64,000 nucleotides of DNA from Polyangiaceae bacterium (GCA_046351325.1 JAXLYR010000002.1:560334-624333), one strand, 5' to 3'; shown: positions 25,162-56,946, numbered from the stretch's first letter. Numbers and translations: made by a program. The notes: generated by a model not told the origin, from the letters alone.

Positions 25162-25229
25162 GGCTCTTGCTTGGCTCGGATCGGCTCGCCGTCCGCGAAT
25201 TGTCTGCGGACCGGATTTGGAGGGCTGCC

Positions 25230-28200
25230 ATGCTCGCTCGTCGCGCGCTTCTCTTGCCGGCTCGTGTGTTCGGACTGGTGGCTTTGCTGTCCAGTTGTGA
25301 AGAGAACGACTCCAATGCGCCCGACGCGCAGCCGAGCGCAGCGGTTGCGGCGCCGAGCGCGATGCCTGCGCCGAGGCCCGAGCTCCAAGCTGTCCCGGAG
25401 GGCGCCCCCATCTTCACGCGCACGGCCGCGGGGTGGACGGCGCTCGGCGCATCCCTGAGCGTGACCGTCGATGACAGTGACGTCAGCCTCACCTCGGAGC
25501 AGGCCACGCTCCATGTGGAGACGGAGCAGATGGGCCGTGGTGAGGACGCAGCGGTCGGCGCCCGTGAGGTGCACGAGAGACCCGACGGGGCGGTCGCGAT
25601 CGCTTACAGCAGTGTAGAGGAAATCTGGCGCGCGAGCGACACCTCCGCGGAGCAGAGCTTTCATTTCGCCGAGGTCCCCGAGGGCGCTGGGGATTGGACG
25701 GTTCGACTCGGCGTTTCAGGGTTGGAGCGCGCCTCCGCAGGGGAGGGGGGCGTCGTCTTCGAGGGGGCTGACGGCGCGTTCTTCCGCTATGGCGTCGCGA
25801 CCTGGGTCGACGCGCTCGGGGCCCGAACGACCATCGTGCCGAGCTACGAGGCAGGTCGCATCGTCCTGCGCGTGCCCGAGGCCTTGCTCGAATCGAGCGC
25901 GTACCCCGCAGTCCTCGACCCGGTCATTACCCCGCTGTCGGAGCTCGACGTGGGGAACCCTGGCGCCGGCCCCAACTTGGATCGCTTCGGCCCTGGAAAG
26001 TGGGCCGCGTGCGGCGCGTCGCGCTGCCTCATCGCGATTCGCCCGACGAGCGGGGTGAGCTTGCTCATTTGGACCGAGCTCGACGGCGGTCCGATCGGCG
26101 GCGGCGCTTATGCCCCAATCCCGACTCCCACGGTCGCTGGCGTCGGCTATGACAGCGGGCGCTTCACCGTCCTCACCCAGCCGTCGACCGCCGTGCTCCA
26201 CCTCACTCGTTATGACGAGAGCGGCGCCACAGTGGGCGGCTTCGACGCGGTCACCACCAACAACACCAAGTTCAACCCGGCCATCAACTGTGGCCACGGC
26301 TTCTGCCTCCTCACCTGGGTACAAGACAGTTTGCCCGGCCCCAGCTTCGCCGCGCGCGTGATGGCGGACGACTCGTTGCCCGACTTCCTCGGCTTCCCAC
26401 TGATCCCCTACACTGTGCGGCGCGTGACGGCAGCGATTGGCCCCACGCAGATGGCGGTCCAATTCGATAGCTCCTCGATCAGCCGCTACAACCACGACAC
26501 GACGTACATCGACTCGGGTGGGTCGTACACGGCAAACCCCGACACGATTGTAGGCACAGTCGTCGCGGGACCGAGCGCGTTCGTGTTCTCGACCGAGAAG
26601 TTCGTCTGGGCGCTCGACTACTCCTGGGTTCCGCTCCCGATGTCGGCGTCCGCTCGAGTCCTTTGCGATGCAGGGAGCGTCGATGGCTTCCAGTACTACT
26701 ATCCTGGGGATACCGGCCTGACCTACGCGAGTGATCGCCTCTTCATGGCGGTGGTGAGGGACCCCGACCCGAACGGCTACGTCCTCGCCAACAATGTCCT
26801 CATTGGTGCACAAGACCCGGCGTTTGTCGCGTGTCTCACCTCGGACGGCTACCAGTCCCTCGCGCAGAACCTCCTCGCCAAACAGAGCCGACCCGTCCTC
26901 GTGACCTCGGGGACCGACGCGCTCGCGCTCTTCCAACACGCCGACATGCGGCTGAAAGAGCTCGACACGGTCCGCGTGCGCCGGTTTGGCGCGACAGGGC
27001 CGACAGGCCCTGAGTACGTCCTCACCCAACACCAGGCTGTCCAATTTCGCCCGGCGCTCGCGTCCGACGGCGCTGGTTACATGGCTGTCTGGACCGAGGC
27101 CCGACTCGGCGGCTTCGCCGTCATGGCGCTGCCGCTCGACGGTCTCGGGAGCCCGACAGCGTCCCCGCGCCTCTTGGATTTCAACCAGGCCGGTCCCATC
27201 GAGACTGGTGCCTTCCCGCAAACCATAGAGCGGACCCCGAGCGTCGCTTGGAATGGCTCGCGCTACATCGTCGGCTGGAGTCGCTTCGACCCTGACGCGC
27301 CTTCGAGCCAATGGGTGGTACGGCTCGACTCGACTGGCAACCCGCTCGATCCGGCGCCCATCCGTGTGAGCCCAATCGACACGGTCACGCGCAACGAGGC
27401 GATCGTCGCCTCGAACGGTGCTGTGGATTTGGTCGGGTTTCACACCTCCACCGGGGAGTTTCGCGTCTATCGCCTCGGCGCGAGCGGCGCCCCGCTCGAG
27501 TCGCAAGGCATCTATCTCGGGGGCGGCGCGGGCACGGCTGTCGACGCCGCGTGGGACGGGACGCGGTTCTTCGTCGCGAGCAGCGCAGGGCTACATCGGC
27601 TGAGCGCGGCGGGGACGCTGCTCGAGGCCAACGTCTTTGGTCCGGCCCTCGCGGGGCCGCGGCTCGCGTGCTCGCCGACGGCGTGCCTCGTCGTCCACGC
27701 GCAGGCGCGTCTCTTCGCTGGCGACTCGAGCGCGATCGGTGGCGCGATCACCTACGCAACGGGGACTCCGAGCGAGTGGTCGGCGACTTACAATGGTGTA
27801 GACTATGTCGTCGCTTACACGGACGCGTCCGGCACGCTGTGGGGGCGCACGCTGTCGTCCGCCGGCGTCCCCCAGGGCTCGAGCCCGTTCCTCGTCCTGA
27901 GCGGACAGAACAGTCAGCCTGCTGTGGCGAGTCGTGGAGACGGCACCGCCATCGTCCTCACTGCCCGCCGCGACGGGACCTCGCCCTCGGGTCGACTCCG
28001 GATCTTCTCGGGGCGCATCGAGGCGTCTCTGTCGCTCGGTCAGGCCTGCTCGACGAACGACGATTGTGGCTCGCAATATTGCGTAGACGGGGTCTGCTGC
28101 AACTCGCTTTGCGGCGCAGGTGCCGCGGATTGCCAGGGCTGCAGCGTCGCGACTGGCGCGCTCACCAATGGGACCTGCAGGGTATATTCCGCGAGCTCGG

Positions 28201-38377: not shown

Positions 38378-39727
38378 TCAGCGCAGGCCCAGCTTGCGGA
38401 GTTTGTCGCGCAGGGTGGAGCGCGGCAGGTCGAGGGCGCGGGCGGCGCGCGTGAGGTTGTGGCCGTGGTCCGCCCACGCCCTCACGATGAGGTCTCGCTC
38501 GAAGTCTCTGAGGCTGTTGGATTGGACAGGCACCTTCGGCTCGGAGGGCGGTGTGATGCTCGGGCGCGTCAGCCGAGGCATCTGCGCGAGCGCTACGCGA
38601 ATGTGCTCCGCGTCGAGCGTGCCGGCCGTCGACACGATGGCCGCGTGGTCCAGGACTGCGCGCAGCTCGCGGACGTTGCCCGGCCAAGACGCGCCACGCA
38701 GGAGCTCGAGCGCGTCCTCGGTGAGGTCCACGCTGTCGAGGTTGTGGCGCTTGCTGAACGCCTGGAGAAACTCTCGCGCGAGCGTCTCGATATCGTGGAC
38801 TCGCTCGCGGAGCGGCGGCAGCGAGATCGTGAACCCGGCGAGGCGATAGAGAAGGTCGGGTCGGAGATGCGCGGCGCTCAGGCTCGAGAGGCGATTGGTC
38901 GCGCTCACGACACGCGCATCGAGGGGGCGATCCTGGTTCGATCCCAAGCGACGGAACCTCCTCGTCTCGAGCACGCGCAAGAGCTTGGCCTGCGTGGCCA
39001 GCGGCATCTCCGTGACCTCGTCGAGGAAGAGCGTGCCGCCGTTCGCGGCCTCAGCCAACCCGATGCGCGGCGTCCTCGCGCCCGTGAACGCGCCCGCCTC
39101 GTGCCCGAAGAGCTCGCTCTCCAAGAGCTGCTCGGGGATGGCCGCGCAATTGACAGCAATGAAAGGACGGTCGGGGGCGTGGCTGAGCCGATGAATCTCC
39201 TCGGCCACGAGCTCCTTGCCGGTGCCTGTCTCTCCGAGGATGAGGACTGACACTTCACGGTAGGACGCCACGCTCCGGACCTGCTCGCGAACGAGCCGAA
39301 TCGCCAGCGTATTGCCGAGGATCGCGCTGTCTCCGAGGGCGACCTCGCGGGCTGGGAGGAGGGCGCGCACGTCGTTGAGCAGCGCTTCGAGCGCGGCGCG
39401 GGAGTAGGCCTGACTGCGCGCCGCATATCGCCGAGGAGGCTCGGGCTGCACGAGGAGGAGAATGGTGTCGTGCGGGACGACGCTGTTCACGACCGGGCAC
39501 CGCTCACACTTGGACGCTGTGCAAGCAGGGCACGCGCGTGGGACCAGGGTCGAGGTGCGGTCGAGCAGCTTGGCCACGTAGTCTTGAGAGGCCAGCATCG
39601 CCGCGGCGTGATCCACAGTCCCGGCGATCTCGAGGATGGCGTGCGCTTGCCCCACCACGTGCGCGACACGCTCGATGATCTCGCTGTCTTCGCTGATGAG
39701 CGCAACCTTCGGTGCTGGTGGCGTCAC
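38378..39727 (-). CDS. Sigma-54-dependent transcriptional activator (NtrC family): REC-like domain + CxxC-x4-CxxC knuckle + AAA + HTH
   Basis: GETGTGKE Walker A, GAFTGA motif (HEAGAFTGA), ESELFGHE, C-terminal Fis-type HTH. Inserted motif [14 protein letters not shown]. Confidence 0.85.
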
Positions 39728-43561: not shown

Positions 43562-44602
43562 ATGAGCAAGGCTGTTGTCATAGGCGGGGCGGGATTCATC
43601 GGGCGGCGACTCGTCGAGATGCTGGCTGGCAATGAGCCACACCCCGATTGGGCTCGCTTCGATCATGTCCACGTCGTGGACTTGGCGCCCGCGACCATCG
43701 CAGAAGGTGAAGCTCCGCGCGTCACCACCGCGAAGGCGGACGTGCGCTCCCACGACGATCTGCGGCGCGCGTTCGAAGGCGCGGACACCGTCTTTCATTT
43801 GGCGTCGGTCGTCGACGTCGGCTTGAAGAAGAGCGCGACGATCGAGCCGACGAACGTCGGCGGAGCGCGCAACGTCGTGGCTGCGGCGCGCGAGGCCGGG
43901 GTGCGAGCGCTCGTCTACACGAGCTCCGAGGACGTGTTGCTCTCGGAGATCCCCGTGCGCGGCGGCGACGAGACCATGCCTTATCCGGCGCGACCGATTC
44001 ACGACTACGTGCGGACCAAGATCGAGGGCGAGCGCATCGTCCTCGGCGCCGACGATCCGAGCGGCCTTCGCACGTTGGCGATCCGCCCCGTCCACGTGTA
44101 CGGGCCCCGCGATCCGCATGCGATCGTCACGAGCCTCCGCGCCTTCGCGAAGGGCTCGGTGCCGTTCCTCCTCGGGAACGGCGAGGCGCTCTTCGACGTC
44201 GTGTACGTCGACAACGTCGTCCACGCCCACCTACTCGCGGCGCGCGCGCTCCACGAGGCTCCCCATCGCGTCGCGGGCCGCCCCTACATCGTGAACGAGG
44301 ACCACGCGGTCAACTACTTCGAGTGGCTGCGTCCTTATGCCGCGCGCAAGAACGTGAAGATGCCTCGCTTGCGGCTCGGGCGCAGGCCGACCCACGCCCT
44401 CGCGCGGGCGATGGGCCTCGTTCATCGCGTGACCGGTCTCGAGGTTCCCTTCCATTCCTTTCACGCGCACGTCATCGGCGAGGATTTCTACTTCTCGTCG
44501 CGCCGAGCAAAGACGGAGCTCGGCTACACGCCGATCGTCTCCGTCGAGGACGCGCGGCGCCGCACGCTCGAGTGGCTCGATCACGTGGCGCTCGAGGGCT
44601 GA
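43562..44602 (+). CDS. NAD(P)-dependent epimerase/dehydratase (3-beta-HSD-like)
   Basis: VVIGGAGFIGRRLVEML Rossmann motif; YxxxK (YVRTK). Confidence 0.8.
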   Translation: MSKAVVIGGAGFIGRRLVEMLAGNEPHPDWARFDHVHVVDLAPATIAEGEAPRVTTAKADVRSHDDLRRAFEGADTVFHLASVVDVGLKKSATIEPTNVGGARNVVAAAREAGVRALVYTSSEDVLLSEIPVRGGDETMPYPARPIHDYVRTKIEGERIVLGADDPSGLRTLAIRPVHVYGPRDPHAIVTSLRAFAKGSVPFLLGNGEALFDVVYVDNVVHAHLLAARALHEAPHRVAGRPYIVNEDHAVNYFEWLRPYAARKNVKMPRLRLGRRPTHALARAMGLVHRVTGLEVPFHSFHAHVIGEDFYFSSRRAKTELGYTPIVSVEDARRRTLEWLDHVALEG

Positions 44603-44673
44603 GGATCGGATTCTCGTCGAAGGGCTGCGTCCTTTCCGCGAGGTCCCCGTCTTGAGGGCAGGAGACTACGAAG

Positions 44674-45501
44674 ATGAACGAGCAGACGAAGGATGAAGTT
44701 CGCGCCGCCGTGCGGGATCAATACGGCAAGGTCGCACGGCAGAACGCGACGGGCTGCGCGCCCAGCTGCTGCGGCAGCGGCGCGGACATGAGCTTGAAGC
44801 TCGGCTATTCGGCCGAGGATCTGGCGGCAGTCCCCGAGGGCGCGAACATGGGTCTCGGGTGCGGCAATCCGCAGGCGATCGCGGCCCTCAAGGCTGGCGA
44901 GACGGTCCTCGACCTCGGAGCAGGTGGTGGCTTCGATTGCTTCTTGGCGGCCAAACAGGTCGGTCCGACGGGCAAGGTGATCGGCGTCGACATGACACCC
45001 GACATGGTGTCGAAGGCCCGGGTCAACGCACAGAAGGTCGGCGCGACCAACGTCGAGTTCCGCCTCGGGGAGATCGAGCATCTGCCTGTCGCTGACAATA
45101 CTGTAGACGTCATCCTCTCGAACTGCGTCATCAACCTCAGCCCGGACAAGGGCGCCGTCTTCCGCGAGGCCTTTCGTGTCCTCAAGCCCGGCGGTCGTCT
45201 CGCGATCTCGGACGTCGTCAAATTGAAGGCTCTGCCCGAAGCACTCGAGCGCGACATGGCGGCGCTCACGGGGTGCGTGTCGGGGGCCGCGACGGTCGAC
45301 GACGTGCGAGCCATGCTCGCTGCGGCAGGCTTCGGCACTGTCGTGGTCGACGTCCGGCCCGAGAGCCGCGAGTTCATCCGCGAGTGGATACCGGACTCCA
45401 ACGTCGAGGACTTCGTCGCCTCGGCTGCCATCGAGGCCGTGAAGCCAGGTGGGAAGTCCTGCTGTGGCCCCTCGTGTTGCGAGCCCGGAGCCTCGGCGTG
45501 A
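44674..45501 (+). CDS. arsM: Arsenite S-adenosylmethionine methyltransferase
   Basis: SAM-binding motif VLDLGAGGG. Conserved Cys signatures [25 protein letters not shown]-terminal CCGPSCC. Confidence 0.8.
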
Positions 45502-46115
45502 TCGACGCCGCGGCGCGCGGTGCATGGCGCGAGCTCGAGACTCGCCTCAGGCCGTTCATCGCGCGGCGCGTGCCCACGGCGAGTGATGTCGATGACGTTG
45601 TACAAGATATTTTCTTGCGAATGCAGCGCGGCTTGGGTGGTCTTCGCGACGACGAGCGCTTCGGGCCCTGGGTGTACCAGGTCGCGCGGAGCGCCATCGT
45701 CGAGCATCGACGCTCCCTCGCGCGCCACCCCATCGCCGAGGGCGTCACGGTGGAAGAGCCCGTCGAGGACGGTGACGATCGCGCGGTCGAGGAGGAGCTC
45801 GCGCTCCACGTCGCGCCGTTCGTCGCGATGCTGCCGTCGCCCTACCGCGAGGCCCTCACCCTCGTCGAGCTCGAGGGCCTCACGCAGAAGCAGGCGGCCG
45901 AGATGCTCGGCGTTTCGCTCTCGGGGATGAAGTCGCGCGTGCAGCGGGGGCGCGTGCAGCTGCGCCGCGCCCTCGAGGATTGCTGTCACATCGCGCTCGA
46001 CGTTCGAGGTCGCGTGGTCGCCTGCGAACCGCGACCGGATGGGCGTCTGCCGAGCGGGTGCTGCGAAGCGACTCGGTGCGCTGCGAGCGATTCACCCTCG
46101 AGCCGCGCGCGTTGA
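45498..46115 (+). CDS. ECF sigma factor with a C-terminal Cys-rich extension (CorE/ECF44-like)
   Basis: Sigma-2 ([10 protein letters not shown]…) and sigma-4 ([25 protein letters not shown]) regions, then [36 protein letters not shown] start overlaps the arsM TGA. Confidence 0.7.
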
Positions 46116-46390
46116 TTGGCCCCGCGCTCGTGGGTCGCGCAGTCTACCAGAAGTCGCCGGAGAGCCGCGGGTAGCTTGCACACCTCGCAAGCAATCAGCC
46201 TTCTCTTCTAGGTCGAGACCAGTGAGCGGCGACGTGAACCGCACTCGGGTTTTGTCTTTTTCGAGTTCGCAACGGGAATGTTTGCGGAGTGAGGAGCCTT
46301 GCCCTGTACGATCCCTCCTACCGGTCCAGTCTTCCGCCGAGTGGCCCCGAAAACACAGCTGGGTCGCTTCCGCGCAGAAAAGGAAGGGCT

Positions 46391-46750
46391 ATGAACATCT
46401 CGATCACGTTCCGGCATATGGATGGCACGGATGCGGTCAAAAACTATGCGAACGAGAAGATCTCTCGGCTGCAGAAGTTCCTGCGTCAGGCGATGACGGC
46501 GCAAGTCACGCTCTCCGTCGAGGGCTTGGAGCACATCGCTGACGTGCGCATCCACTCGGGGAGCGCGACGTTCCACGCGAACGAGCGCAAGGAGGACATG
46601 TACGCTTCGATCGACCTCGTCCTCGACAAGCTGGAACGTCAGATCCACGCCCAGAAGGGGGCGAACGTCGCAAAGAAGCACGGTGGGATGAGCGCTGGTG
46701 AGTTCGCGGTCGCGGTCGAACGCGAGTCGCAGCGCGGCACGCGCGGCTGA
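46391..46750 (+). CDS. hpf: Ribosome hibernation-promoting factor / sigma-54 modulation protein
   Basis: MNISITFRHMDGTDAVKNYANEKISRLQKF. AGGAAGG RBS. Confidence 0.85.
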   Translation: MNISITFRHMDGTDAVKNYANEKISRLQKFLRQAMTAQVTLSVEGLEHIADVRIHSGSATFHANERKEDMYASIDLVLDKLERQIHAQKGANVAKKHGGMSAGEFAVAVERESQRGTRG

Positions 46751-47005
46751 GTTCTTCGGCAGAGTTTTTCGGCTGAGTTTCTCGTAAGTGGCCGTGGCCT
46801 TCGCTGGCGCGAGCGAACAGGACCGGTGAGGAGGTCGAGCCTGCGAGGGCTCGCGGCCACAGCAGGGTAGACACAGCAGGGTGGACGCAAGACGCGTCGT
46901 TCAGCGGGGGGCGCCGAACGACGCGGGCAGTTGTCCCGTCGGTGCGGGGCGATCGCAAAAGGCAGTTCGTGTTGTGGCGTGTGCTAAGGTTCCGGAGCCT
47001 TAGCC

Positions 47006-47497
47006 ATGCTGGTCGTCGACATCCTCAGTCCGAGTCGAGTGTCGGTCGCAGGTCTCGGTGCCGGCGCGAAAGGTGCGGACGTCGAGACCAAGCAAGCCGT
47101 CCTGCATCGGCTCGCGGAGCTCCTCTGCTCCGGGGAGAGCGCCCTCGATCCGGTGAAGATCGAGCAGATGCTCCTCAAGCGAGAGGAACAACAATCCACC
47201 GGCGTCGGCGGTGGTGTCGCCATCCCCCACGCCGCGATCGAGGAGCTCGATCACATCGTCGGTGCGGTCCTGCTCTGCCCGAAACCCGTGGGTTTCGATG
47301 CGATCGATGGTCTGCCCGTCTCGATCTTCTTCGCGGTCATCGGTCCGCGTCGCGCGGTCGGCGAGCACCTGAAAACGCTGGCGCGCGTGTCGCGCCTGCT
47401 GCGGGACGACCATTTCCGCAAGCGGCTCGTCTCGGCCGTCGACGGTCGTACGGCGTTCGAGCTCATCGCCAGTGAAGAGGGGCGCCCCGCGGTGTGA
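47006..47497 (+). CDS. ptsN: PTS IIA-Ntr (nitrogen-regulatory EIIA)
   Basis: …HRLAELL…VGGGVAIPHAAIEELDHIVGAVLL. Confidence 0.85.
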   Translation: MLVVDILSPSRVSVAGLGAGAKGADVETKQAVLHRLAELLCSGESALDPVKIEQMLLKREEQQSTGVGGGVAIPHAAIEELDHIVGAVLLCPKPVGFDAIDGLPVSIFFAVIGPRRAVGEHLKTLARVSRLLRDDHFRKRLVSAVDGRTAFELIASEEGRPAV

Positions 47498-47570
47498 TGC
47501 GGGGCTCGCGTTCGCTTCACGACGTTCTCGCGCTCAGTCTCCCGCTTCTTGGAAAGGCAGCCTGGAAGCC

Positions 47571-48929
47571 ATGAAATCCGACGACGATCCTCCGTCCCGG
47601 GCGGCGCCCTCGAGCTCGAAGAACAGCACGCCCGGCGGGCAAGTGTCCTACGACTGGCCCGACGACGAGACCTTCGCGGGGCCGGCTCCATCCGAGTCTC
47701 CCGCGAAGCGTCCGCTCATGTCGGCGCGCGCGCTGCTCGACGAGACGCTCCACGGTCTGTCGCTGGCCCTCCTCGCCGGGAGAGCCGGTCTTGATCGACC
47801 CATCGCGCACACCCGAATCCAGAAGAGCGGGCTCGCGCTCGCGGGGCACTTCCACGGCATCGTGCCCTCGCGCATCCAGATCCTCGGTCAGACCGAGCAA
47901 TCGTTCGTCGATCGGTTGGAGCCGAACGCTCGCGAGCGCGCGCTCGCCGGCTTCTTCGGGCTCGGCCTCAGCTGCGTGGTCCTCACGGGTGAGCTCGGGC
48001 GCGCGGCGCCCAAAATCATCGAGCGCGCCGACGTGACCGACACACCTCTTCTGCACGCACCGGAGCGATCGAGCCTGACGATCACCTCGCTCCACGCGCT
48101 CCTCGATGAGCGGCTCGCGCCTCGCAAGCGCCTTCACGGCGTGCTCATCGACGTGTTCGGCGTCGGCCTCTTCTTGATGGGAGGCAGCGGCGTCGGCAAG
48201 AGCGAGTGCGCGCTCGAGCTCGTGATGCGTGGTCACCGCCTCGTCGCCGACGACGTCGTCGAGTGCGACTTCCGTCCTCCGGGGATGGTCTTCGGCGCGC
48301 CGGCGAAGCTCCTGCGACACCACCTCGAGGTTCGCGGTCTCGGCATCCTCAACATCAAGGATCTCTTCGGTGTGACGGCGATCCGCGAGCGCAAGCGCGT
48401 CGACGTTGTCGTGCGCCTCGTCGACGAAGCGAGCGCCGAAGCAGACTTCGATCGGCTCGGGCTCGACGAGCGATTCCACACGATCCTCGGCGTGTCGATC
48501 CCCGAGCTCGTCGTGCCTGTGCGACCCGGTCGCGATATGGCCTCCATCCTCGAGGTCGCGGCTCGCAACGAGCTGCTGAAGAACGCGGGACACCACGCTG
48601 CGCGCGAGCTCTTCGGCGCGATCGAGACCCAGATCGCGACGGGCGCCCCGCGTGAGCCCATGCTTCGACTCGACGCGAGCGTGCCGTCCTCGACGGTCAC
48701 GCCTGCGACAGCGCGTACGCCGATCGCGCACGACGCCGAGGGCGAGCGGCTCCCGCTTCGACAGGCCGCGGCCTTCACGCAGCGCGGCTCTCCGCTTCGT
48801 CCGCGCGAGAGCGAGTTCGGCATGCCTGCGGTGCGCGCGCCGCGCACCGACGAGTCTTCCGCGCCTCCGCCGGTCGGCCCGCACCAGGGCCGGCTCGGCC
48901 CCCTCGGCGGCGGCAGGGAACGCAAATGA
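47571..48929 (+). CDS. hprK: HPr kinase/phosphorylase with an N-terminal Pro/Ser-rich extension and a C-terminal low-complexity extension
   Basis: LIDVFGVGLFLMGGSGVGKSECALELVMRGHRLVADDVV. Alternative start at 47718 (MSARALLDE…). Confidence 0.8.
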   Translation: MKSDDDPPSRAAPSSSKNSTPGGQVSYDWPDDETFAGPAPSESPAKRPLMSARALLDETLHGLSLALLAGRAGLDRPIAHTRIQKSGLALAGHFHGIVPSRIQILGQTEQSFVDRLEPNARERALAGFFGLGLSCVVLTGELGRAAPKIIERADVTDTPLLHAPERSSLTITSLHALLDERLAPRKRLHGVLIDVFGVGLFLMGGSGVGKSECALELVMRGHRLVADDVVECDFRPPGMVFGAPAKLLRHHLEVRGLGILNIKDLFGVTAIRERKRVDVVVRLVDEASAEADFDRLGLDERFHTILGVSIPELVVPVRPGRDMASILEVAARNELLKNAGHHAARELFGAIETQIATGAPREPMLRLDASVPSSTVTPATARTPIAHDAEGERLPLRQAAAFTQRGSPLRPRESEFGMPAVRAPRTDESSAPPPVGPHQGRLGPLGGGRERK

Positions 48930-49873
48930 ACGAGAGTCCGTCGAGTGAGCGCAGGAGAACCCACGTCGTGGTCGTGACGGGTCTCTCCGGGGCTGGCAGA
49001 TCGACGGCGATGGCGGCCCTCGAGGATCTCGGGTTCTACAGCATCGAGAACGCTCCGCCGTCGGTCATCGTCGAGGCCATCGAGGCCTGCGAGCAAGCGG
49101 GCGTTCGTCGCATCTCGCTCGGCATCGGCAACTCCGTTCCGGCGTTCATCGAGAGCACCGCGGATGCCGTCGCGAAGCTCGCCCCACAATCGAATCGACG
49201 CGTCACGACGCTCTTCCTCGACGCGACCGATGAGGTCCTGCTCCGCCGCTTCAGCGAGACGCGGCGGCCTCACCCTGCGTTCTCACGCGAGCAAGACGCG
49301 GCCGGCGTGCTCGAGGGAATTCGCATCGAGCGTCGTAGGTTGTCACCGCTGCGTGCGCTGTCTCCGCTCGTCGTCGACACCAGCATGCTGACCGTGCACG
49401 AGCTGCGTCGTCACGTGTTCGCCTTGTTGCGCCCCGAAGCCGGCGCGCACCAGATGGTCACGCGCGTCGTGTCCTTCGGCTTCAAGTATGGATTGCCGAG
49501 CGACGCTGACCTGGTGTTCGACGTCCGTTTCTTGGATAATCCTCACTTCGTAGCGGAGCTTCGGCCGCTGACCGGCCAAGATCGGCGCGTCTCCGACTAC
49601 GTGCTTCAGGCCAAAGGGGCGGGGGACTTCGTGGATCGAACGGCCGAGCTCTTGAACACACTGCTCCCTCGTTACGAGGAAGAGGGAAAGAGCTACCTCA
49701 CCATCGCGGTCGGTTGTACGGGCGGGCGTCATCGCTCGGTCGCTCTCGCCGAAGCGATCGCCGAGCGGCTTCGTCGCGCTGCAGCCGATCCGGGCGCGCC
49801 GGGCGGGCGCGTCACCATCGTTCACCGCGACATCGAGCGCGCCGACAAGCACATACGGGAGTCGGCGCCGTGA
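48926..49873 (+). CDS. rapZ: RNase adaptor protein RapZ (YhbJ)
   Basis: VVVTGLSGAGRSTAMAALEDLGFYSIENAPP. ATGA overlap with hprK. Confidence 0.85.
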   Translation: MNESPSSERRRTHVVVVTGLSGAGRSTAMAALEDLGFYSIENAPPSVIVEAIEACEQAGVRRISLGIGNSVPAFIESTADAVAKLAPQSNRRVTTLFLDATDEVLLRRFSETRRPHPAFSREQDAAGVLEGIRIERRRLSPLRALSPLVVDTSMLTVHELRRHVFALLRPEAGAHQMVTRVVSFGFKYGLPSDADLVFDVRFLDNPHFVAELRPLTGQDRRVSDYVLQAKGAGDFVDRTAELLNTLLPRYEEEGKSYLTIAVGCTGGRHRSVALAEAIAERLRRAAADPGAPGGRVTIVHRDIERADKHIRESAP

Positions 49874-49923
49874 CCGCCGACGCTGGTGGGACACGCGACG
49901 GCGGTCGCGAGGCTGCGGAGGCC

Positions 49924-50184
49924 GTGTTCGAGATCGTGAACGAGCGCGGGATGCACGCGCGCGCCGCGACGAAGCTCGTTCAGCTCGCGGGCCGATACCG
50001 CTGCGACGTCCTGCTCTCGAGCGACGAGGCCGAGGGCGTGAACGCGAAGAGCGTGATGGGCGTGCTCCTGCTTTGTGGAGCGAAGGGGACGATGCTCCAC
50101 GTCCGCGCCGACGGGCCCGCAGCGGGTGAGTGCGTGGACGCCATCGGGGTCCTCATCGCCAACCGCTTCGGAGAGCCGGAGTGA
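49924..50184 (+). CDS. ptsH: HPr/NPr phosphocarrier protein
   Basis: (M)FEIVNERGMHARAATKLVQLAG… with the active-site His. Alternative GTG start at 49870 would give a GTGA overlap with rapZ. Confidence 0.7.
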   Translation: MFEIVNERGMHARAATKLVQLAGRYRCDVLLSSDEAEGVNAKSVMGVLLLCGAKGTMLHVRADGPAAGECVDAIGVLIANRFGEPE

Positions 50185-51989
50185 GCGCCGACAACGACAC
50201 CAGCACGCTCGCCGGCCTTCCGGGGTCGCCCGGCCTCGCGATCGGCACCGCCTACGTCCTCGGTCATCAGCTCGTACGCATCCCGCGTCGCAGCGTGCCC
50301 GTCAGCGAGCGCGCGTTCGAGATCGACCGGTTTACCTCGGCGCGCAGGCGCGCTCGGGACGATCTTCGCCGCTTGGTCTCGGCGCTGAGCGATCGATCTT
50401 CAGGGTCGGCGAGCGCCGTCCTCGAGGCCTACGCGCTCATGGTCGACGACCCGATGCTCACCGGCGAGGTCGAGCGTCGCATCACCGAAGAGGCGCGCTG
50501 CGCAGAGTGGGCCGTCGCGCTCGCGGTTCAGGCCTTCTCGCACAAGCTCGGTGAGGCCGACGATCCGTACTTGCGCGAACGCAGCCGCGACATCGAGTTC
50601 GTCGGTGAGCACCTGCTTCGCGCGTTTGGTCAGACCGGCGAGCTGAAGAAGCTCCCGGCCGGTCCTGTCGTGCTCGTCGCCCGCGATCTGTCCCCCGCGG
50701 AGACCGCGGGCTTCGTCAACGACTCGGGTGGTGGCCGGGGTGAGGGTCGCGACGGGGCGAAGAGCTTCGTCGTCGCGTTCGCGACCGAGGGCGGGACCCG
50801 CACGAGCCACACGTCGATCACGGCGCGCGCGCTGAAGCTGCCCGCGGTCGTCGGGGTCTCGGAGCTCTGCTCGATCGTCTCCACGGGCGATCTCTGCATC
50901 ATCGACGGCATCCGCGGCACCATTATCGTCAACCCAACTGACGAAGCTCTCGCCGAGGCTCGAGCCCGCGCCGAGCGCTACCGCGCTCTCTCCGTCGAGC
51001 TCACGCGCGCAAGGGAGCGCGCGGCGACCACGCTCGACGGCACGACCGTCGCGGTGCGCGCCAACGTCGAGGTCCCCGACGAAGCGCGCGAAGCGAGCGG
51101 CGAGGGCGCCGAGGGCGTCGGCCTCTACCGCACCGAATATCTCTACGTCGACCGCCTCCATCCGCCGAACGAAGAGGAGCAGTTCGCTGCGTTCCGCTCG
51201 GTCGCCGAGGCCATGCCCCACCACCCTGTGGTGCTGCGCACGTTCGACATCGGTGGTGACAAATTTGTCTCCACGTTCAAGGTCCCTGTCGAGCTCAACC
51301 CGATGCTCGGGCTGCGCGCGGTCCGGCTCGCGGTGTCGCGCCCCGACATCTTCCTCGAGCATTTGCGCGCGATGGTCCGCGCGAGCGCACACGGCGACGT
51401 TCGCATCATGGTGCCCATGGTGAGCGGGATCGGCGAGCTCCGGTGGGTCCGCTCGATGCTCGACAAAGCCATCGAGCAGGTCCGCCAAGCGGGGCATCCC
51501 GTCGCCGAACACATCCCGCTCGGGGTGATGATCGAGGTCCCCTCCGCGGCGATCCTCGCGGATCACTTCGCGCGCGAGTGCTCGTTCCTCAGCATCGGGA
51601 CCAACGATCTCATCCAGTACACACTCGCCGTCGATCGCGCGAGCCGGCGGCTGGCCTACCTCGCGTCACCGTTCGATCCCGCGATCGCTCGCTTGATCCG
51701 GCGGATCGTCGCCGCGGGTGAGGACCACGGTCGCAGCGTCAGCGTCTGCGGCGCGATGGCCGGTGACCCTCTCGGTGCGGTGCTGTTGCTCGGGCTCGGC
51801 GTCCGTGAGTTCTCGATGGAGGTCGGGGCGATCGCCGAGATCCGCGAGACGCTGCGCCGCGTGTCGCTCGACGAGGCCGTGCGGGTCGCCGAGCGCGCGC
51901 TCGAGCTCGCGACCGCCGAGGAGGTCGAGTCGCTGGTAGTCGAGTCGTTCGCGCCCCGGCTGCACGATCTCTTGAGCGGTGAGGCGTGA
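50181..51989 (+). CDS. ptsI: PTS Enzyme I (no GAF domain)
   Basis: GTG start overlaps the HPr TGA, with GGAGAG upstream. Motifs GGRTSHTSITARALKLPAVVG, GLYRTEYL, SIGTNDLIQY. Confidence 0.85.
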   Translation: MSADNDTSTLAGLPGSPGLAIGTAYVLGHQLVRIPRRSVPVSERAFEIDRFTSARRRARDDLRRLVSALSDRSSGSASAVLEAYALMVDDPMLTGEVERRITEEARCAEWAVALAVQAFSHKLGEADDPYLRERSRDIEFVGEHLLRAFGQTGELKKLPAGPVVLVARDLSPAETAGFVNDSGGGRGEGRDGAKSFVVAFATEGGTRTSHTSITARALKLPAVVGVSELCSIVSTGDLCIIDGIRGTIIVNPTDEALAEARARAERYRALSVELTRARERAATTLDGTTVAVRANVEVPDEAREASGEGAEGVGLYRTEYLYVDRLHPPNEEEQFAAFRSVAEAMPHHPVVLRTFDIGGDKFVSTFKVPVELNPMLGLRAVRLAVSRPDIFLEHLRAMVRASAHGDVRIMVPMVSGIGELRWVRSMLDKAIEQVRQAGHPVAEHIPLGVMIEVPSAAILADHFARECSFLSIGTNDLIQYTLAVDRASRRLAYLASPFDPAIARLIRRIVAAGEDHGRSVSVCGAMAGDPLGAVLLLGLGVREFSMEVGAIAEIRETLRRVSLDEAVRVAERALELATAEEVESLVVESFAPRLHDLLSGEA

Positions 51990-53404
51990 CCTTCTCGGTG
52001 CGACGCGGGCTCTTGTTCTTCGGTCTCGTCGCAGCCTGCGAGGCCCCGTCGGCGTCGCCTTCGGATGAAGCGACGGCGAGCGCGAGCCAAGCCTCGAGCG
52101 CGTCGTCAGCGACGCTCCCGACCAACAACGGGAGCGCTGCGACAGCCGCCGCCTTCGAACCGCAGGGCCCCTTTCAGACGGGGTTCTCCGATCCGGTGGG
52201 GCTCACCGCAATTGCTGCCTCGGGGCGCACGATCGCGGTCGCCGCTGGCCCGAACCTCGTGATCCTCGATCCCTCGAGCGGTCAGCGCCTCTGCACGACC
52301 TACGCAGACGACCTCGATCGAAAGGCCGAGTTCACCGCGCTGGCGGTGTCGCGCGATGGCAGTCGCGTCGCCGCTCGGCAGGGCGCCGCTGGTGTGGTCG
52401 TCCTCGAGCGCGACACCTGCCGCGCGGTCTTCCACGGCAAGGTCAGCGATGGGCTCGCGCACGGCTCGCTGCGCTTCTCGGCGGATGGCGAGACGCTCGC
52501 GGTCCTCACCGACGGCACCCGCAAATACCAGCTCGTCCAAGCCCTCGATCTGCGCAGTGGCGCCGCCCATTCGCCGCTCCGCGCGCTCGACGCCACGCCA
52601 GAAGAGGACCCGCGCCCCGAGGCCTTTCTCGCGCCCGACGGTCGGACCGCGCTTCGGCTCGTCGAGCTCGACGTCGAGAAGAAGAAGGAGGGCTGCGAGA
52701 CCCAAGCGACCCCGAAGCGCTGGGCACTCGAGAGCGTTCAGCTCGGGGCTCGCCCGAGCGACAGCGCGCTGACCTTCGGGGACGCAGCGACGATCAGCGC
52801 GGACTTCACCGAGCACCCCAAGCCCATCGCGTTCAGCGACGACGCGGCGCTCGCGGTCATCGTCTCCGGTGCTCAGGTCGGTCTCTACGATCTCGCGCGC
52901 AGCGAGCGCAAATTCAGCTTCGAGAGCAGTCCGCCGCTCGCGGCCGCCATCGCCCCCGACGGGTCGCGAGTCCTCATCCTCTATCCAGATCGCCTCGAGG
53001 TCCGCGCGAGCTCGGGCGTTGTCTCGACGACGCCGCTGCCGACTCGCACGGTTGCAACGCAGCCCTTCGCGCCGATCGCGAGTACGGTCGTGACCCCACG
53101 CGTCGGGTTCAGCAGCGCTGGCGCAGGCGTTTTTGCGACTTACGCTCTCGACGCAGGCACCAACGCACAAACCCTTCGCGGCACTGCGATTTACCTCGCG
53201 TGCAGCGGCGCTTCGCTCGATGCATGTGTCGAGCAGCGTGGCGAATTCAGTATCGATATGCCGTTCCCGAATTTCGCCTGGCCTGACATGGTGGGTGGCT
53301 TCTCCGACGACGGGCGCTCGGTCGCTCTGCCGAATGGAACGTTGCTGCAGTTTGGCAAGTCCGTGATGGGCAGCAGCACCTCGTCCGCGTCGAGTGCGCC
53401 GTGA
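51986..53404 (+). CDS. Hypothetical beta-propeller-like lipoprotein
   Basis: GTGA overlap with ptsI. Signal LVAACEAP. Repeated beta-strand-rich modules. Confidence 0.5.
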   Translation: MTFSVRRGLLFFGLVAACEAPSASPSDEATASASQASSASSATLPTNNGSAATAAAFEPQGPFQTGFSDPVGLTAIAASGRTIAVAAGPNLVILDPSSGQRLCTTYADDLDRKAEFTALAVSRDGSRVAARQGAAGVVVLERDTCRAVFHGKVSDGLAHGSLRFSADGETLAVLTDGTRKYQLVQALDLRSGAAHSPLRALDATPEEDPRPEAFLAPDGRTALRLVELDVEKKKEGCETQATPKRWALESVQLGARPSDSALTFGDAATISADFTEHPKPIAFSDDAALAVIVSGAQVGLYDLARSERKFSFESSPPLAAAIAPDGSRVLILYPDRLEVRASSGVVSTTPLPTRTVATQPFAPIASTVVTPRVGFSSAGAGVFATYALDAGTNAQTLRGTAIYLACSGASLDACVEQRGEFSIDMPFPNFAWPDMVGGFSDDGRSVALPNGTLLQFGKSVMGSSTSSASSAP

Positions 53405-54024
53405 GCCTGCGGTTTTCCCTGGGCGCGCTGGCTCCGACTGCGCTGCTCGTGGGGTGTGGCAGCGCGCCGCTCGCGCACGTGGAGACCTCGGTCCCGGACG
53501 CGGTCGCCGTGCGCGGCGCGGTGGAAGAGTACTCGCTCGTCGGAGACAACGTCGCGGTCGAGGCCGATGTCCGAGCGTCCGCTGCGTATACGGTGCACTT
53601 CCCCAATTCGAAGGGGACGCTCAAGTTCGCGCCGGACGCGCATGACGCCTCGAGCTTCGAACTCGACATCGATGTAACCGTCGCGACGTCGAGCCTGCAG
53701 ATCGTCGCCGACATCGCTCGCGACAAGTTCCTTCACGCGGGCGATTACCCGACAGCCCGCTTCGCGACACGGTCGCTTCGCCCGGGACTCGAGGCCGGCA
53801 GTTATACCCTCTTTGGCGATCTCACCTTGCACGGCAAGACCTTGAGCCTCTCGATGCCGGCGCACGTCGTCGCCGACGACTGCCACGTCTCGATCGATGT
53901 GGAGTTCGGCGTCGATCGGCAAGCCTTCGGGGTCGTCGCCACAGGCGTCCTCGAGGACGTCGTATCCAACACGGTCGTCGTGCGGATCAAGACCTCCGTC
54001 TTGCGACAGTCGTGCAAGGGATGA
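53401..54024 (+). CDS. YceI-like family lipoprotein
   Basis: GTGA overlap. Signal LLVGCGS. …TLKFAPDAHDASSFELDIDVTVATSSLQ… is YceI-like. Confidence 0.6.
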   Translation: MSLRFSLGALAPTALLVGCGSAPLAHVETSVPDAVAVRGAVEEYSLVGDNVAVEADVRASAAYTVHFPNSKGTLKFAPDAHDASSFELDIDVTVATSSLQIVADIARDKFLHAGDYPTARFATRSLRPGLEAGSYTLFGDLTLHGKTLSLSMPAHVVADDCHVSIDVEFGVDRQAFGVVATGVLEDVVSNTVVVRIKTSVLRQSCKG

Positions 54025-54046
54025 CTGACAGTGTTGTAACAGTGGT

Positions 54047-54961
54047 TCAGGCGACCGCAGCGAGGACGAGGATCTTCACCGCGGGGCCGCCGCGCTCGTC
54101 GCGAGCCTCCGCGACCCCGACGCCGATCGCGGTGGCAGCCGGCGTCAGGAGCGAGGCGCTCGGCGTGTACTCCGTCGCGGAGACGACGCGCTGTCCTGTC
54201 ACCGTGATCGAACCTGCCTTGCCGCGCTTCTTCTGATCCTCGGCGACGCGACGACCGACCTCGGCGAGCGCCGCGTCGCTGAGCGAGTCCTCGAGCTCGG
54301 TGACCTTCGCGCGCGCGACCTCATCGAGGTTCGCGTCGATCGTCGCCGGCGGCAGGCCGAGCCGCTTTCGCTCCTCGCCAATTCGTTCGATGACGGTCTG
54401 CCGCGCCACATCCGTCGATTGGCGGATTGCAGGCTTCGCGAAGACCTGGACGAAGAGCCGATTGCCCGCGTCTTTGAATCCACCCTCGGCGACGCCTATT
54501 CCGATATGCGTGACATCGGTGCTCAGCAGGTTCTCTCGATGTCCTGGGCTCGCGAGGAGGCCATCCTCCGCCGCGTCGACGTCGGGGGCATCCGCCAGAT
54601 TCTCACGGGCGAAGAGCACAGCGATTCGAGCGCGCGCGAGGCGATCTTCGAGCTTTCCCGTGGTGGGCGACGTGTGTGAAAAGAACCGGGCGCGGCGCAT
54701 GTCGTCGGCGTGCGCGCGGGCGACCGACGTGAGCGCGTCGTCGTGAGCGAGGGCCGGCACGCCGGCGGCCTGCCGATCGCGATTGACCCGCTCGAGCATG
54801 GAGCGCTCGAGGTCCTCGAGCGACGGAGCTTTGGGGCGCTCGGGCGTGCCCGCGCAACGCGCGCAGCCCATCGCCAGAGCGCCCGCGAGCAGCTGACGCC
54901 GGCGGAGGCCTCCATCGTGATCTCCAGTGAGCTTGATCGAGCCGGGGGAGCGGCGCACCAT
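54047..54961 (-). CDS. Secreted CAP (SCP/PR-1) domain protein with a Tat-like signal
   Basis: RRRQLLAGALAMG. CAP-domain motifs FFSHTSPTTG and HRENLL. Confidence 0.7.
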   Translation of the reverse strand: MVRRSPGSIKLTGDHDGGLRRRQLLAGALAMGCARCAGTPERPKAPSLEDLERSMLERVNRDRQAAGVPALAHDDALTSVARAHADDMRRARFFSHTSPTTGKLEDRLARARIAVLFARENLADAPDVDAAEDGLLASPGHRENLLSTDVTHIGIGVAEGGFKDAGNRLFVQVFAKPAIRQSTDVARQTVIERIGEERKRLGLPPATIDANLDEVARAKVTELEDSLSDAALAEVGRRVAEDQKKRGKAGSITVTGQRVVSATEYTPSASLLTPAATAIGVGVAEARDERGGPAVKILVLAAVA

Positions 54962-54967
54962 GACGGC

Positions 54968-55762
54968 ATGATGAAGTCGTTCTTTGCTTGGCGTAAGAGC
55001 GGTTCTCCTCGGTCCGTCGCGCGCGGCGCCACGCTCGCGCTCGTCGCCCTCGGGGTGTGGAGCGGCTGCTCCGACGACGCCCCGACCGGCGGCTCAGGGG
55101 GCTCGGGCGCGAGCACCACGGGCGGCGGTGGCAATGTGGCTACGGGCGGGGCCGGTGGCGGCGGCGGCTCCTCGCAAGGCGGCCAAGGTGGCTCGGCGGG
55201 TGGGACTAGCCAGGGCGGCGCGGGTGGCAGCGCCCAGGGCGGCGCGGGCGGCGGCACCGTCGCAACACCCGAGTGCGCAGTGCCCGCGGACTGCCAGCTA
55301 GTCAACGACTGCTGCACGTGTGCAAGCATCCCGACGGGTGACACGCCTCCCGATTGCAACGTCCCCGAGTGCTTCGCGACGGCGTGCTCCACTGCGGGAT
55401 ACAATGGCTCGCTCGACTGCCAGCTCGGGCAATGCGTGGCGGGCTTCGATTGTGATGGTTCGATGACGGTCTGCGCGCAGCCCCCGCCAGAGTGCGAACC
55501 CGGCAAGACGCCTGCCGTCGTGAACGGTTGCTGGGGCGGTTGTGTGTTCGCGAGCGAGTGTCGAGTCGTCGGCGATTGCAATCAGTGTGGGCCGAGCGAC
55601 GTCTGCGTTCATCGATCCGTCGGCCCCGCCGACCAGCTGCACTGCGTGGCGGTCCCGCCCGAGTGCGGCACGAAGGCTTCGTGCGACTGTATGGGTATGG
55701 CCGTTTGCGGAGGTGTCCAATGCGCCGAGGTGAACGGTGAGCTCGAGTGTCTGACCCAGTGA
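54968..55762 (+). CDS. Cys-rich lipoprotein with a Gly-rich linker
   Basis: LALVALGVWSGCSDD, poly-Gly, then about 30 Cys in the C-terminal domain. Confidence 0.6.
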   Translation: MMKSFFAWRKSGSPRSVARGATLALVALGVWSGCSDDAPTGGSGGSGASTTGGGGNVATGGAGGGGGSSQGGQGGSAGGTSQGGAGGSAQGGAGGGTVATPECAVPADCQLVNDCCTCASIPTGDTPPDCNVPECFATACSTAGYNGSLDCQLGQCVAGFDCDGSMTVCAQPPPECEPGKTPAVVNGCWGGCVFASECRVVGDCNQCGPSDVCVHRSVGPADQLHCVAVPPECGTKASCDCMGMAVCGGVQCAEVNGELECLTQ

Positions 55763-55770
55763 CGTCAGGC

Positions 55771-56946
55771 ATGCAGCGCGCTCGACTCGTCGTCGCGACT
55801 CTGGCGTTCGCCGGCGCGCTGTCCGCCGTCCTACCGTCGTGTCGCGAGGTCGTCGTCGGTGAACCCGTCGACCTCACGGATCGGGTCTGCACGCTCCTCG
55901 AGAGCTGTTATGGAACGAGCGCGTTCACCTGCACCGATATTCGCGCCCGGTTCGAGGGCGCCGACGACGCGACTCGCGCGGCGTTTCTGGGCAATTTCGA
56001 CACGCAGACTTGCTTCGCGACGTGTCCTGGGGCGCGCGCGTGTCTCGATGCTCCCCCGTTTTGCGGAGTGAGCGAGTGCCAATCGGATACCGACTGCTGC
56101 GGCTGGTCGACGGGGACTGCCGCGTGTCTATCGGGTTATTGCTGTCGCCCCGACGGGGTGGCTTGTGGTGACGACGCGCTGTTCTGTTGCAATGGCTTGT
56201 GCGAAGACGGGGGCTGCGGCGGGTACGTCTGCGCCGATATCGGCGCGACCTGTGCGACCGACTTCGATTGTTGTTCGCAGTACTGTGTCGATGACGTCTG
56301 CCAAATACGCAATTGCTCGAATCCCGGGGAGCCGTGCCTCGGTGACGACGATTGCTGCACCATCGGCGGCACCAGTCTGAAGCTCACGTGTGATCCCCAA
56401 TCGAGCACGTGTGTCGGTGGGGATCAGGCCTGTATCCCGCAGGGTGAGACTTGCTTCGCCACGGACGTCCTCCCTTGCTGCGACGGGCTCCCTTGCCAGC
56501 TCGGGGCGGACGCGCAGACGGGGGTCTGCGCGAACAGCTCCACGTGCCTCGGCCCCGAGTCGGACTGCGATCCGATGTTGGGTAATCCCTGCTGCCCGCC
56601 ATATTTCTGCAGTCCGACGACGGCGCGGTGCCAGCCGCAGACGAACAACTGCGCCGGCCCGACCGAGCCCTGTAATGGTGATACGGACTGCTGCACGGGC
56701 TTGCAATGCGCGGGCAATGTCTGCGAAGCCCCGACCTGCAATACGGCGTCGTGTCACAGCCCTTGCGTCACCGGTGCCCCGATTGACCTGCCGTGTCCGT
56801 CGACTCCCGCGCTGTCGACGGACGCGCTCGATTGCATCACGAAGGTCCTCGGTATTCGGCCCGCGTGCGGCTGCGTCGAATGGGCGAGTGAGTGCGTGGA
56901 CGCCGCGAGGATGGCGTGCGGCCCGCTCTGCGCGAACACCAACTAG
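55771..56946 (+). CDS. Cys-rich secreted lipoprotein (knottin-like CC/CxC modules)
   Basis: MQRARLVVATLAFAGALSAVLPSC. Repeated …DCC…C…C… modules. Confidence 0.6.
   Translation: MQRARLVVATLAFAGALSAVLPSCREVVVGEPVDLTDRVCTLLESCYGTSAFTCTDIRARFEGADDATRAAFLGNFDTQTCFATCPGARACLDAPPFCGVSECQSDTDCCGWSTGTAACLSGYCCRPDGVACGDDALFCCNGLCEDGGCGGYVCADIGATCATDFDCCSQYCVDDVCQIRNCSNPGEPCLGDDDCCTIGGTSLKLTCDPQSSTCVGGDQACIPQGETCFATDVLPCCDGLPCQLGADAQTGVCANSSTCLGPESDCDPMLGNPCCPPYFCSPTTARCQPQTNNCAGPTEPCNGDTDCCTGLQCAGNVCEAPTCNTASCHSPCVTGAPIDLPCPSTPALSTDALDCITKVLGIRPACGCVEWASECVDAARMACGPLCANTN

Follow-up and report, generated by a model that had tools for sequence, protein, structure and literature searches.

Introduction

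Why do genes for two predicted lipoproteins stand at the end of a cluster of cytoplasmic phosphotransferase system (PTS) genes, and what links them to it? The question is raised by a stretch of 64,000 nucleotides (nt) from a Polyangiaceae bacterium, a soil myxobacterium (GCA_046351325.1, JAXLYR010000002.1:560334-624333), here called the window, which has ~68% G+C and in which eight genes in the same direction (+ strand) span positions 46391-54024: hpf, ptsN, hprK, rapZ, ptsH, ptsI, a 472-amino-acid (aa) open reading frame (ORF) named orf472, and yceI. From this sequence an original prediction had described a complete cluster from hpf to Enzyme I (EI) that continues into a beta-propeller lipoprotein gene and a yceI-like gene through serial 4-nt start/stop overlaps. 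We find that the locus represents the known regulatory PTS cluster of the rpoN type in a variant specific to one lineage, and that it is probably a transporter-less operon which was later extended by yceI and then by orf472, the added genes being linked to the older ones by shared expression.

Gene junctions

Gene identities were assigned by Pfam and NCBIfam profile searches with curated cutoffs, and the junctions were read straight from the DNA. The hprK and rapZ genes overlap by ATGA at 48926-48929, and GTGA overlaps follow at 49870-49873 (rapZ/ptsH), 50181-50184 (ptsH/ptsI), 51986-51989 (ptsI/orf472) and 53401-53404 (orf472/yceI). All five of the proposed serial overlaps, from hprK through yceI, can be seen in the DNA. 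An alignment with four orthologues places the start of HprK at ATG 47571 (MKSDDDPPSR..., M34 of the long ORF) and not at GTG 47472; because of this start, ptsN and hprK are separated by a gap of 73 nt, with no overlap in the window. Since hpf stands 255 nt before ptsN and ptsN 73 nt before hprK, the tight gene chain runs from hprK to yceI. The cluster is complete from hpf to EI as a gene set, but not as a chain: hpf is set off by its spacer and by a hairpin, weakly terminator-like and T-rich in its tail, at its stop codon (46746-46770, + strand, consensus scan), and ptsN does not overlap hprK.

The start codons that create the overlaps were compared with those of four related loci (L001-L004). 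The ptsH start at 49870, on which the rapZ/ptsH overlap had been made conditional, overlaps the rapZ stop by 4 nt in four of four loci and is an ATG in three. At the ptsH/ptsI junction, too, each of these loci has a 4-nt overlap; several starts at the two junctions are ATG, and the equivalent of the ptsI start in L004 is an ATG. Because the four loci keep 4-nt overlapping starts, both 49870 and 50181 are supported. For yceI, GTG 53401 is the sole in-frame start that retains the signal peptide, the next one (53449) beginning at the lipobox. The start candidates of orf472 are 51986 and an alternative GTG at 51998, and both leave no space for a terminator-promoter pair. Outside the PTS cluster, exact 4-nt overlaps were found at 9 of 39 same-strand junctions (~23%, from a hand count of gene calls on related contigs). 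Given this background a lone 4-nt overlap is ordinary, and the run of five indicates a tight operon and nothing exotic.

Related loci and order of gene gains

The comparison set consisted of 14 related Polyangiaceae contigs. L001-L004 came from a genome scan with EI, L011 was recovered when metagenomes were scanned with a YceI profile, and L013-L021 came from the contexts of YceI or HprK homologues. The EI scan retrieved nothing but Polyangiaceae and distant taxa, the metagenome scan contributed only two loci, and the cultured outgroup was Sorangium.

In every contig of sufficient length, hpf, ptsN, hprK, rapZ, ptsH and ptsI are present with matching stop-on-start junctions, and the 4-nt overlaps recur in L001-L004 and, according to gene calls, in L013, L015, L016, L018, L019 and L021. 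The yceI gene lies directly after ptsI in 12 contigs (L001-L004, L011, L013-L018 and L021), which amount to ~8 lineages by EI identity. Its spacing from ptsI varies between an overlap of 23 nt (in a single gene call, L015) and a gap of 26 nt, with an exact 4-nt overlap in L003, L013, L014, L016, L017 and L021. The genes past yceI vary among contigs (convergent hypotheticals, rpmG-mreBCD or a 179-aa ORF); yceI therefore travels with the PTS genes.

After ptsI, yceI is absent in Sorangium sp. So ce145 (L019) and in L020, a metagenome-assembled genome (MAG) in which convergent genes follow ptsI. In the Sorangium locus (12602-16266 of L019), ptsI overlaps by 4 nt with a gene for a 740-aa 5'-nucleotidase-like lipoprotein, which in turn overlaps a gene for a 481-aa lipoprotein. 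Both proteins bear lipoboxes, as do the products of all genes that are coupled to ptsI on its downstream side. A homologous pair of 5'-nucleotidase-like and lipoprotein genes was also observed in L013, L016 and L021, ~1.7 kb downstream, past yceI and two opposite-strand genes.

In a neighbour-joining tree of EI, one clade holds all yceI-bearing loci, with the window branching from within it, and L019 and L020 fall outside. Most parsimoniously, yceI was gained once after ptsI, and orf472 later and in the window lineage only; because the window is nested in the yceI clade and orf472 occurs nowhere else, being absent from all related loci, the latter gene is a recent insertion, placed between ptsI and yceI. 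The two "envelope proteins" of the original prediction differ in standing: in ~8 lineages yceI is conserved as the last gene of the cluster, and orf472 is an orphan unique to this genome.

The YceI lipoprotein

The product of yceI (53401-54024, 207 aa) matches PF04264 with 68.3 bits (1.3e-18, cutoff 23.7), the YceI domain covering residues 55-198, and it belongs to the YceI family; ligand binding is predicted only. The N-terminus, MSLRFSLGALAPTALLVGC, carries a signal peptide and the lipobox LLVGC (Cys19). The lipobox criterion was [LVI][ASTVI][GAS]C, and the motifs of YceI and orf472 were judged by eye; by sequence both proteins are lipoproteins, their lipidation and sorting being predicted. 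The lipobox cysteine of YceI is invariant in five of five aligned orthologues, as is C161. The subfamily is sharply bounded, with ~21 proteins at 192 bits or more and the next at 87 bits. The equivalog model of Escherichia coli YceI, NF002994, gave 29.8 bits against a cutoff of 232, placing the protein outside that equivalog. The fold of YceI proteins is a lipocalin-like barrel, with which characterised members of the family bind polyisoprenoids or derivatives of fatty acids.

The orphan gene orf472

The predicted protein of orf472 (51986-53404, 472 aa) begins with MTFSVRRGLLFFGLVAAC, which comprises a signal peptide and the lipobox LVAAC (Cys18), followed by a Ser/Ala-rich linker and by repeated blade motifs of the xSxDGxxLA type. 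Its G+C content is 0.81 at third codon positions (GC3) and 0.57 at second positions (GC2), a frame-specific signal which is sustained over 1.4 kb and is coding-like. It has no Pfam or NCBIfam family match: no Pfam match was obtained at an E-value of 0.01 or below, and the thresholds of the WD40, PD40 and PQQ families were not reached. A search of 5.8 billion protein clusters retrieved orf472 itself and no homologue, and an exhaustive HMMER search of 1.84 billion representative proteins gave no orthologue and 52 weak matches, the best at 5.8e-8. All ten of the weak matches that were checked are WD40 propeller proteins, and the only match among PDB sequences was the bacterial WD40 protein PkwA (5yzv, 2.7e-5).

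Structure prediction with AlphaFold2 (AF2) from the single sequence reached a predicted local distance difference test (pLDDT) value of 45, too poor for fold assignment. With a 12-sequence WD40 alignment the values were a pLDDT of 62 and a predicted template modelling score (pTM) of 0.60, residues 70-340 lying mostly between 70 and 93, in a model that is biased by the alignment. Foldseek matched this WD40-aligned model to seven-bladed WD40 propellers at template modelling (TM) scores of 0.5-0.58. The "beta-propeller lipoprotein" of the original prediction is thus borne out for its lipobox signal peptide, and its propeller part has moderate support from the weak WD40 matches and the alignment-biased model; orf472 probably encodes a diverged seven-bladed WD40-like beta-propeller.

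NCBI has a 100%-identical protein entry (Polyangiaceae MAG) for each of orf472, YceI and HprK. An exact-sequence search of the contig index with orf472 gave no match. A relationship of orf472 to the 481- and 489-aa lipoproteins encoded after the 5'-nucleotidase gene in Sorangium and L013 was considered and rejected, there being no similarity. Repeats or target-site duplications that might flank orf472 as traces of insertion were likewise sought, and only GC-rich chance matches were obtained. The start of orf472 (51986-52002, GTGACCTTCTCGGTGCG) matches the 3' part of ptsI (51763-51779) at 16 of 17 positions; the match is near chance by a rough estimate and lies at the insertion boundary, and we do not count it as a sign of an insertion mechanism.

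Transcription signals

A consensus scan detected no terminator-like site on the + strand between ptsI and the end of yceI (50068-54024). The hairpin at the end of hpf is the only + strand terminator-like site at a gene end, and the scan total of 6 sites does not differ significantly from the 3.6 +/- 2.1 expected. No Rfam element was found in 44000-56000 at an E-value of 1 or below. A sigma-70 promoter scan gave 0 sites with a consensus that does not capture myxobacterial promoters. The verified and conserved overlaps, together with the lack of internal terminator-like sites, point to a single transcript with translational coupling. As for the proposal that the PTS is co-translated with two envelope proteins, the physical chaining and the lack of a terminator-like site after ptsI agree with it, but co-translation itself is only inferred.

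Upstream of ptsN, an alignment of the hpf-ptsN spacers showed a short TGCTAGGTTCC-like motif at 25-60 nt from the gene in six of eight loci, which could be an extended -10 element; no other conserved block was found across the eight aligned spacers. The spacer of the window contains a perfect hairpin, GCTAAGG-N8-CCTTAGC (46983-47004), which stops 2 nt short of the ptsN ATG and includes the GGAG in its loop, and a second perfect hairpin farther upstream of ptsN, CGCGTCGTTC-N13-GAACGACGCG (46893-46925).

Cytoplasmic PTS proteins

The gene set from hpf to EI was confirmed by the profile searches, with PtsN below its equivalog cutoff. hpf (46391-46750) encodes a short-form ribosome hibernation-promoting factor of 119 aa (PF02482, 6.7e-24; TIGR00741, 79.5 bits, cutoff 40.9), which is 78-87% identical in L001-L004. 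The ptsN-like gene (47006-47497) encodes an EIIA protein of 163 aa (PTS_EIIA_2, PF00359, 3.8e-24) with an AIPH phospho-acceptor His motif. Its top NCBIfam match is PtsN (TIGR01419), at 80.1 bits and under the equivalog cutoff of 138.7; the context, with hpf upstream and hprK downstream, agrees with PtsN.

HprK, the HPr(Ser) kinase/phosphorylase (47571-48929, 452 aa), scored 314.6 bits with TIGR00679 (cutoff 240) and has both the PF02603 and PF07475 domains, the Walker A motif GGSGVGKSE and the signature loop LEVRGLGILN, which place it in the HprK/P family. Its core is flanked by proline/serine-rich tails of ~49 aa at the N-terminus (47571-47717) and ~100 aa at the C-terminus (48627-48929). These are the low-complexity extensions of the original prediction; they are real and contain motifs that are invariant in the alignment with four orthologues, namely DDDPPSR.A.SSS and WP..E in the N-terminal tail and RES.F....R.PR.DES.APPP in the C-terminal one. 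Extended HprKs of 380-530 aa are usual in Polyangiaceae, cultured Sorangium included, and the C-terminal core (D/E)ES(S/A)xPPP is kept in Sorangium and L020 as well. On these comparisons, the tails look like a general Polyangiaceae trait and no peculiarity of the window locus.

RapZ (48926-49873, 315 aa) passed the equivalog cutoff of NF003828 (314.8 bits, cutoff 244) and has both PF03668 and PF22740, which identifies it as a member of that family. Its Walker A lysine is replaced by arginine in the window only (K25R; codon 25, 48998-49000; GLSGAGRST, with the rare codon AGA), while codon 25 is AAG or AAA in 11 of 11 related loci (GLSGAGK[ST]T). The change would be either a real substitution that probably impairs nucleoside triphosphate hydrolysis or a consensus error of the MAG.

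HPr, encoded by ptsH (49870-50184, 104 aa; PF00381; TIGR01003, 70.6 bits, cutoff 47.9), holds a His15-type site (GMHARAA) and a Ser46-type site (NAKSVMG), at which phosphorylation is predicted from a reading of the sequence. EI, encoded by ptsI (50181-51989, 602 aa), scored 516.5 bits with TIGR01417 (cutoff 341.7) in a match that begins at residue 11 of 602, and it has the three PEP-utiliser domains only. That EI lacks a GAF domain, as had been stated, agrees with our searches: no GAF domain was matched by Pfam or NCBIfam, the domain set is of the EI(R) type, and the PtsP model NF008283 gave 379 against a cutoff of 583, aligning at model positions 169-734 only.

Surroundings of the cluster

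No rpoN gene was found in the window, which has no large ORF with a sigma-54 domain, and an RpoN-box peptide was found neither in the window nor in L001-L010. The statement that no rpoN lies upstream of hpf within the window is in line with both searches, and the cluster is not part of an operon with rpoN directly upstream of hpf. The relatives have no rpoN beside hpf either; their upstream neighbour of hpf is an AAA_16-TPR regulator gene. Immediately upstream of hpf in the window, where an rpoN-type cluster would have sigma-54, stands a gene for a SigZ-type extracytoplasmic function (ECF) sigma factor whose C-terminus is extended by a Cys-rich segment (45273-46115, start probably near 45520). 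A sigma-54 activator gene lies 6.7 kb upstream on the minus strand (38378-39727).

The AAA_16-TPR gene of the window (11880-14582) is separated from hpf by ~31.8 kb (14583-46390), and the orthologous gene is ~200 bp upstream of hpf in L013, L015, L018 and L021 (66-74% identity to three). This difference in distance indicates a large insertion or rearrangement between the two genes in this genome. Within the extra 31.8 kb, the minus strand carries a gene for a type VI secretion spike of the VgrG type (20815-24012; Phage_GPD, Gp5_C, Phage_base_V) and, adjoining it, a gene whose 662-aa product weakly matches an LCAT-like lipase (18814-20802); the two look like a spike-effector pair. A 1774-aa ORF (25134-30458, + strand) has a summed Pfam Disintegrin E-value of 2.1e-79 from many repeats, which is unusual in a bacterial protein. 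Downstream, a gene for a secreted protein of the CAP/YkwD family (54047-54961, minus strand) converges on yceI with 22 nt between the stops, a gap in which no terminator-like hairpin was detected.

Discussion

The reading that we consider rather probable is that of a regulatory PTS operon without transporter genes, extended at its 3' end by yceI and later by orf472 and joined to them by shared expression. In such an operon, a transcript would start upstream of ptsN or hpf and run through yceI, and ribosomes ending at each TGA would reinitiate at the overlapping ATG or GTG, so that HprK, RapZ, HPr, EI and the lipoproteins would be made in a fixed ratio. A phosphorelay would operate in the cytoplasm from phosphoenolpyruvate (PEP) to EI, to the histidine of HPr and to PtsN, with HprK setting the serine phosphorylation of HPr, and the products of yceI and orf472 would be exported and lipid-anchored. 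The position after ptsI acts as a slot into which lipoprotein genes are repeatedly taken up. The link between the PTS and the lipoproteins most likely consists of a shared promoter, a shared mRNA and a fixed relative dosage; physical contact between them is unlikely.

Several points weigh against this reading. Four-nt overlaps at ~23% of ordinary junctions add little past operon membership. The product of orf472 has no homologue, and its fold is read from weak sequence matches and a WD40-biased model. The source is a MAG, and within the one window at hand an assembly or consensus error is possible. Internal promoters are possible, the sigma-70 scan being blind to myxobacterial ones, and the operon transcript is a prediction. 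The ligand class proposed for YceI is borrowed from distant members of its family, as the low score with the E. coli model indicates.

The lipoproteins might instead work together with the regulatory PTS or be among its outputs, forming a selected module that ties carbon/nitrogen status and hibernation to envelope remodelling, in which YceI and, in this genome, the orf472 product would serve the handling of lipids, isoprenoids or quinones in the envelope under the control of the PtsN/HPr/RapZ circuit. The persistence of yceI after ptsI in ~8 lineages, down to 62-64% EI identity and while flanking genes change, would suit such a module, as would the presence of lipoprotein genes in the slot even where the family differs, as in Sorangium, and the documented envelope links of the E. 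coli PTS(Ntr), where GlmS is under the control of RapZ, while NPr acts both on LpxD and in the context of envelope stress (work cited in PMC13104625). We nevertheless regard it as unlikely. The families found in the slot (YceI, WD40-like, 5'-nucleotidase-like and the 481-aa protein) are mutually unrelated, a pattern that opportunistic capture fits better; L020 has no gene coupled after ptsI; and no link between YceI and a PTS was found in the literature. Because the PTS proteins and the lipoproteins sit in different compartments and the slot families are unrelated, we favour co-expression, or opportunistic capture by a constitutively useful operon at its 3' end, over direct partnership. Distinctly doubtful is the more far-reaching idea that in Polyangiaceae the regulatory PTS operon has turned into a dedicated means of making envelope lipoproteins, the YceI-type binder of lipids or isoprenoids and, in this genome, a new propeller lipoprotein being produced at a set ratio to HprK, RapZ, HPr and EI. 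Such an arrangement would tie carbon/nitrogen and hibernation signalling to lipid handling in the outer envelope, and the HprK tails (DDDPPSR..SSS, DESSAPPP) would be the docking sites that join the kinase to it.

Two further alternatives concern the added genes themselves. If orf472 were a non-functional chance or decaying frame in a 1.4-kb insertion, or an artefact of MAG assembly, the true operon would be the seven-gene unit of the relatives. Its lack of homologues and of family matches would be explained in this way, long ORFs arise readily at 68% GC, and its GC3 dips to 0.70-0.76 around 52900-53200. Overall, however, the codon-position signal is sustained in exactly its frame, the signal peptide, lipobox and Ser/Ala linker are canonical, the blade motifs give significant WD40 matches (including PkwA), and an exact GTGA stands at both ends, which a random insertion or chimeric join would not yield; we hold a non-functional orf472 to be very unlikely. 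Still less credible, in our judgement, is that the overlapping starts of orf472 and yceI are unused, the two genes having their own internal promoters inside ptsI or orf472 and the chain being mere compact packing. The GTG starts were picked by ORF logic alone, with the second candidate in orf472, no clear Shine-Dalgarno sequence was seen before yceI, and in L001, L004 and L018 yceI begins 5-26 nt past the ptsI stop without overlap. Against this stand the yceI GTG, which alone keeps the signal peptide in frame, the ATG codons at the overlapping ptsH and ptsI starts of relatives, and gaps of 0-26 nt, which are too small for a terminator-promoter pair, none having been detected.

The core cluster is textbook, and nothing at the locus overturns expectation. 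New are a clade-specific, sharply bounded subfamily of YceI lipoproteins that is encoded, in stop-on-start coupling, by the last gene of a regulatory PTS operon, the capture of unrelated lipoprotein genes at the post-ptsI position at least three times in one family, and the finding that one captured gene, orf472, is an orphan without relatives in billions of proteins, with exact coupling junctions. If the co-expression is functional, the locus offers a handle on the role of YceI and on the targets of the transporter-less PTS in myxobacteria; if the lipoprotein genes are only hitch-hiking, it is a clean case of operon growth at the 3' end and of the domestication of an orphan gene through such junctions.

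Comparison with known systems

The YceI family includes E. coli YceI, the polyisoprenoid-binding protein TT1927b of Thermus and HP1286 of Helicobacter pylori. Like the other members of PF04264, the window protein has a YceI domain and is predicted to be exported; unlike E. coli YceI, it is predicted to be lipoprotein-anchored and belongs to a narrow Polyangiaceae subfamily. Its gene follows ptsI, whereas in the E. coli yceJ-yceI arrangement yceI lies beside a cytochrome b561 gene.

The orf472 product resembles PkwA of Thermomonospora curvata (5yzv) in its predicted repeated four-strand blades and its SxDG-type motifs, and WD40 proteins are its best sequence and fold matches. With BamB it shares the predicted combination of a lipoprotein anchor and a propeller body; the BamB matches come only from the low-confidence orf472 model, at a TM score of about 0.2, and nothing suggests a role in the beta-barrel assembly machinery (BAM).

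The E. coli cluster rpoN-hpf-ptsN-rapZ-npr, with ptsP elsewhere (PMC13104625), has the same order of hpf, ptsN, rapZ and an HPr-like gene and is likewise regulatory and not concerned with sugar transport. It differs in that E. coli has no HprK and encodes a GAF-containing EI(Ntr) elsewhere, whereas the EI of the window is GAF-less and encoded in the operon. PtsP of the enterobacterial PTS(Ntr), which has a GAF domain, belongs to a separate branch (PMC13104625), and sensing of glutamine and 2-oxoglutarate through GAF cannot apply in the window because its EI has no such domain.

The closest likeness is to the rpoN-linked cluster of Proteobacteria, composed of rpoN, hpf, ptsN, ptsK/hprK, yhbJ/rapZ, ptsO/ptsH and ptsI (Comas et al. 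2008, PMC2405797), in which a GAF-less EI(R) together with ptsN, hprK and HPr has been proposed as ancestral for Proteobacteria (PMC2405797). The window shares with this EI(R) cluster its gene set and order, the GAF-less EI, the dual-site HPr and the lack of EIIB and EIIC permease genes. It departs from it in having no adjacent rpoN, in the conserved disordered tails of HprK, and in an operon that runs on into lipoprotein genes.

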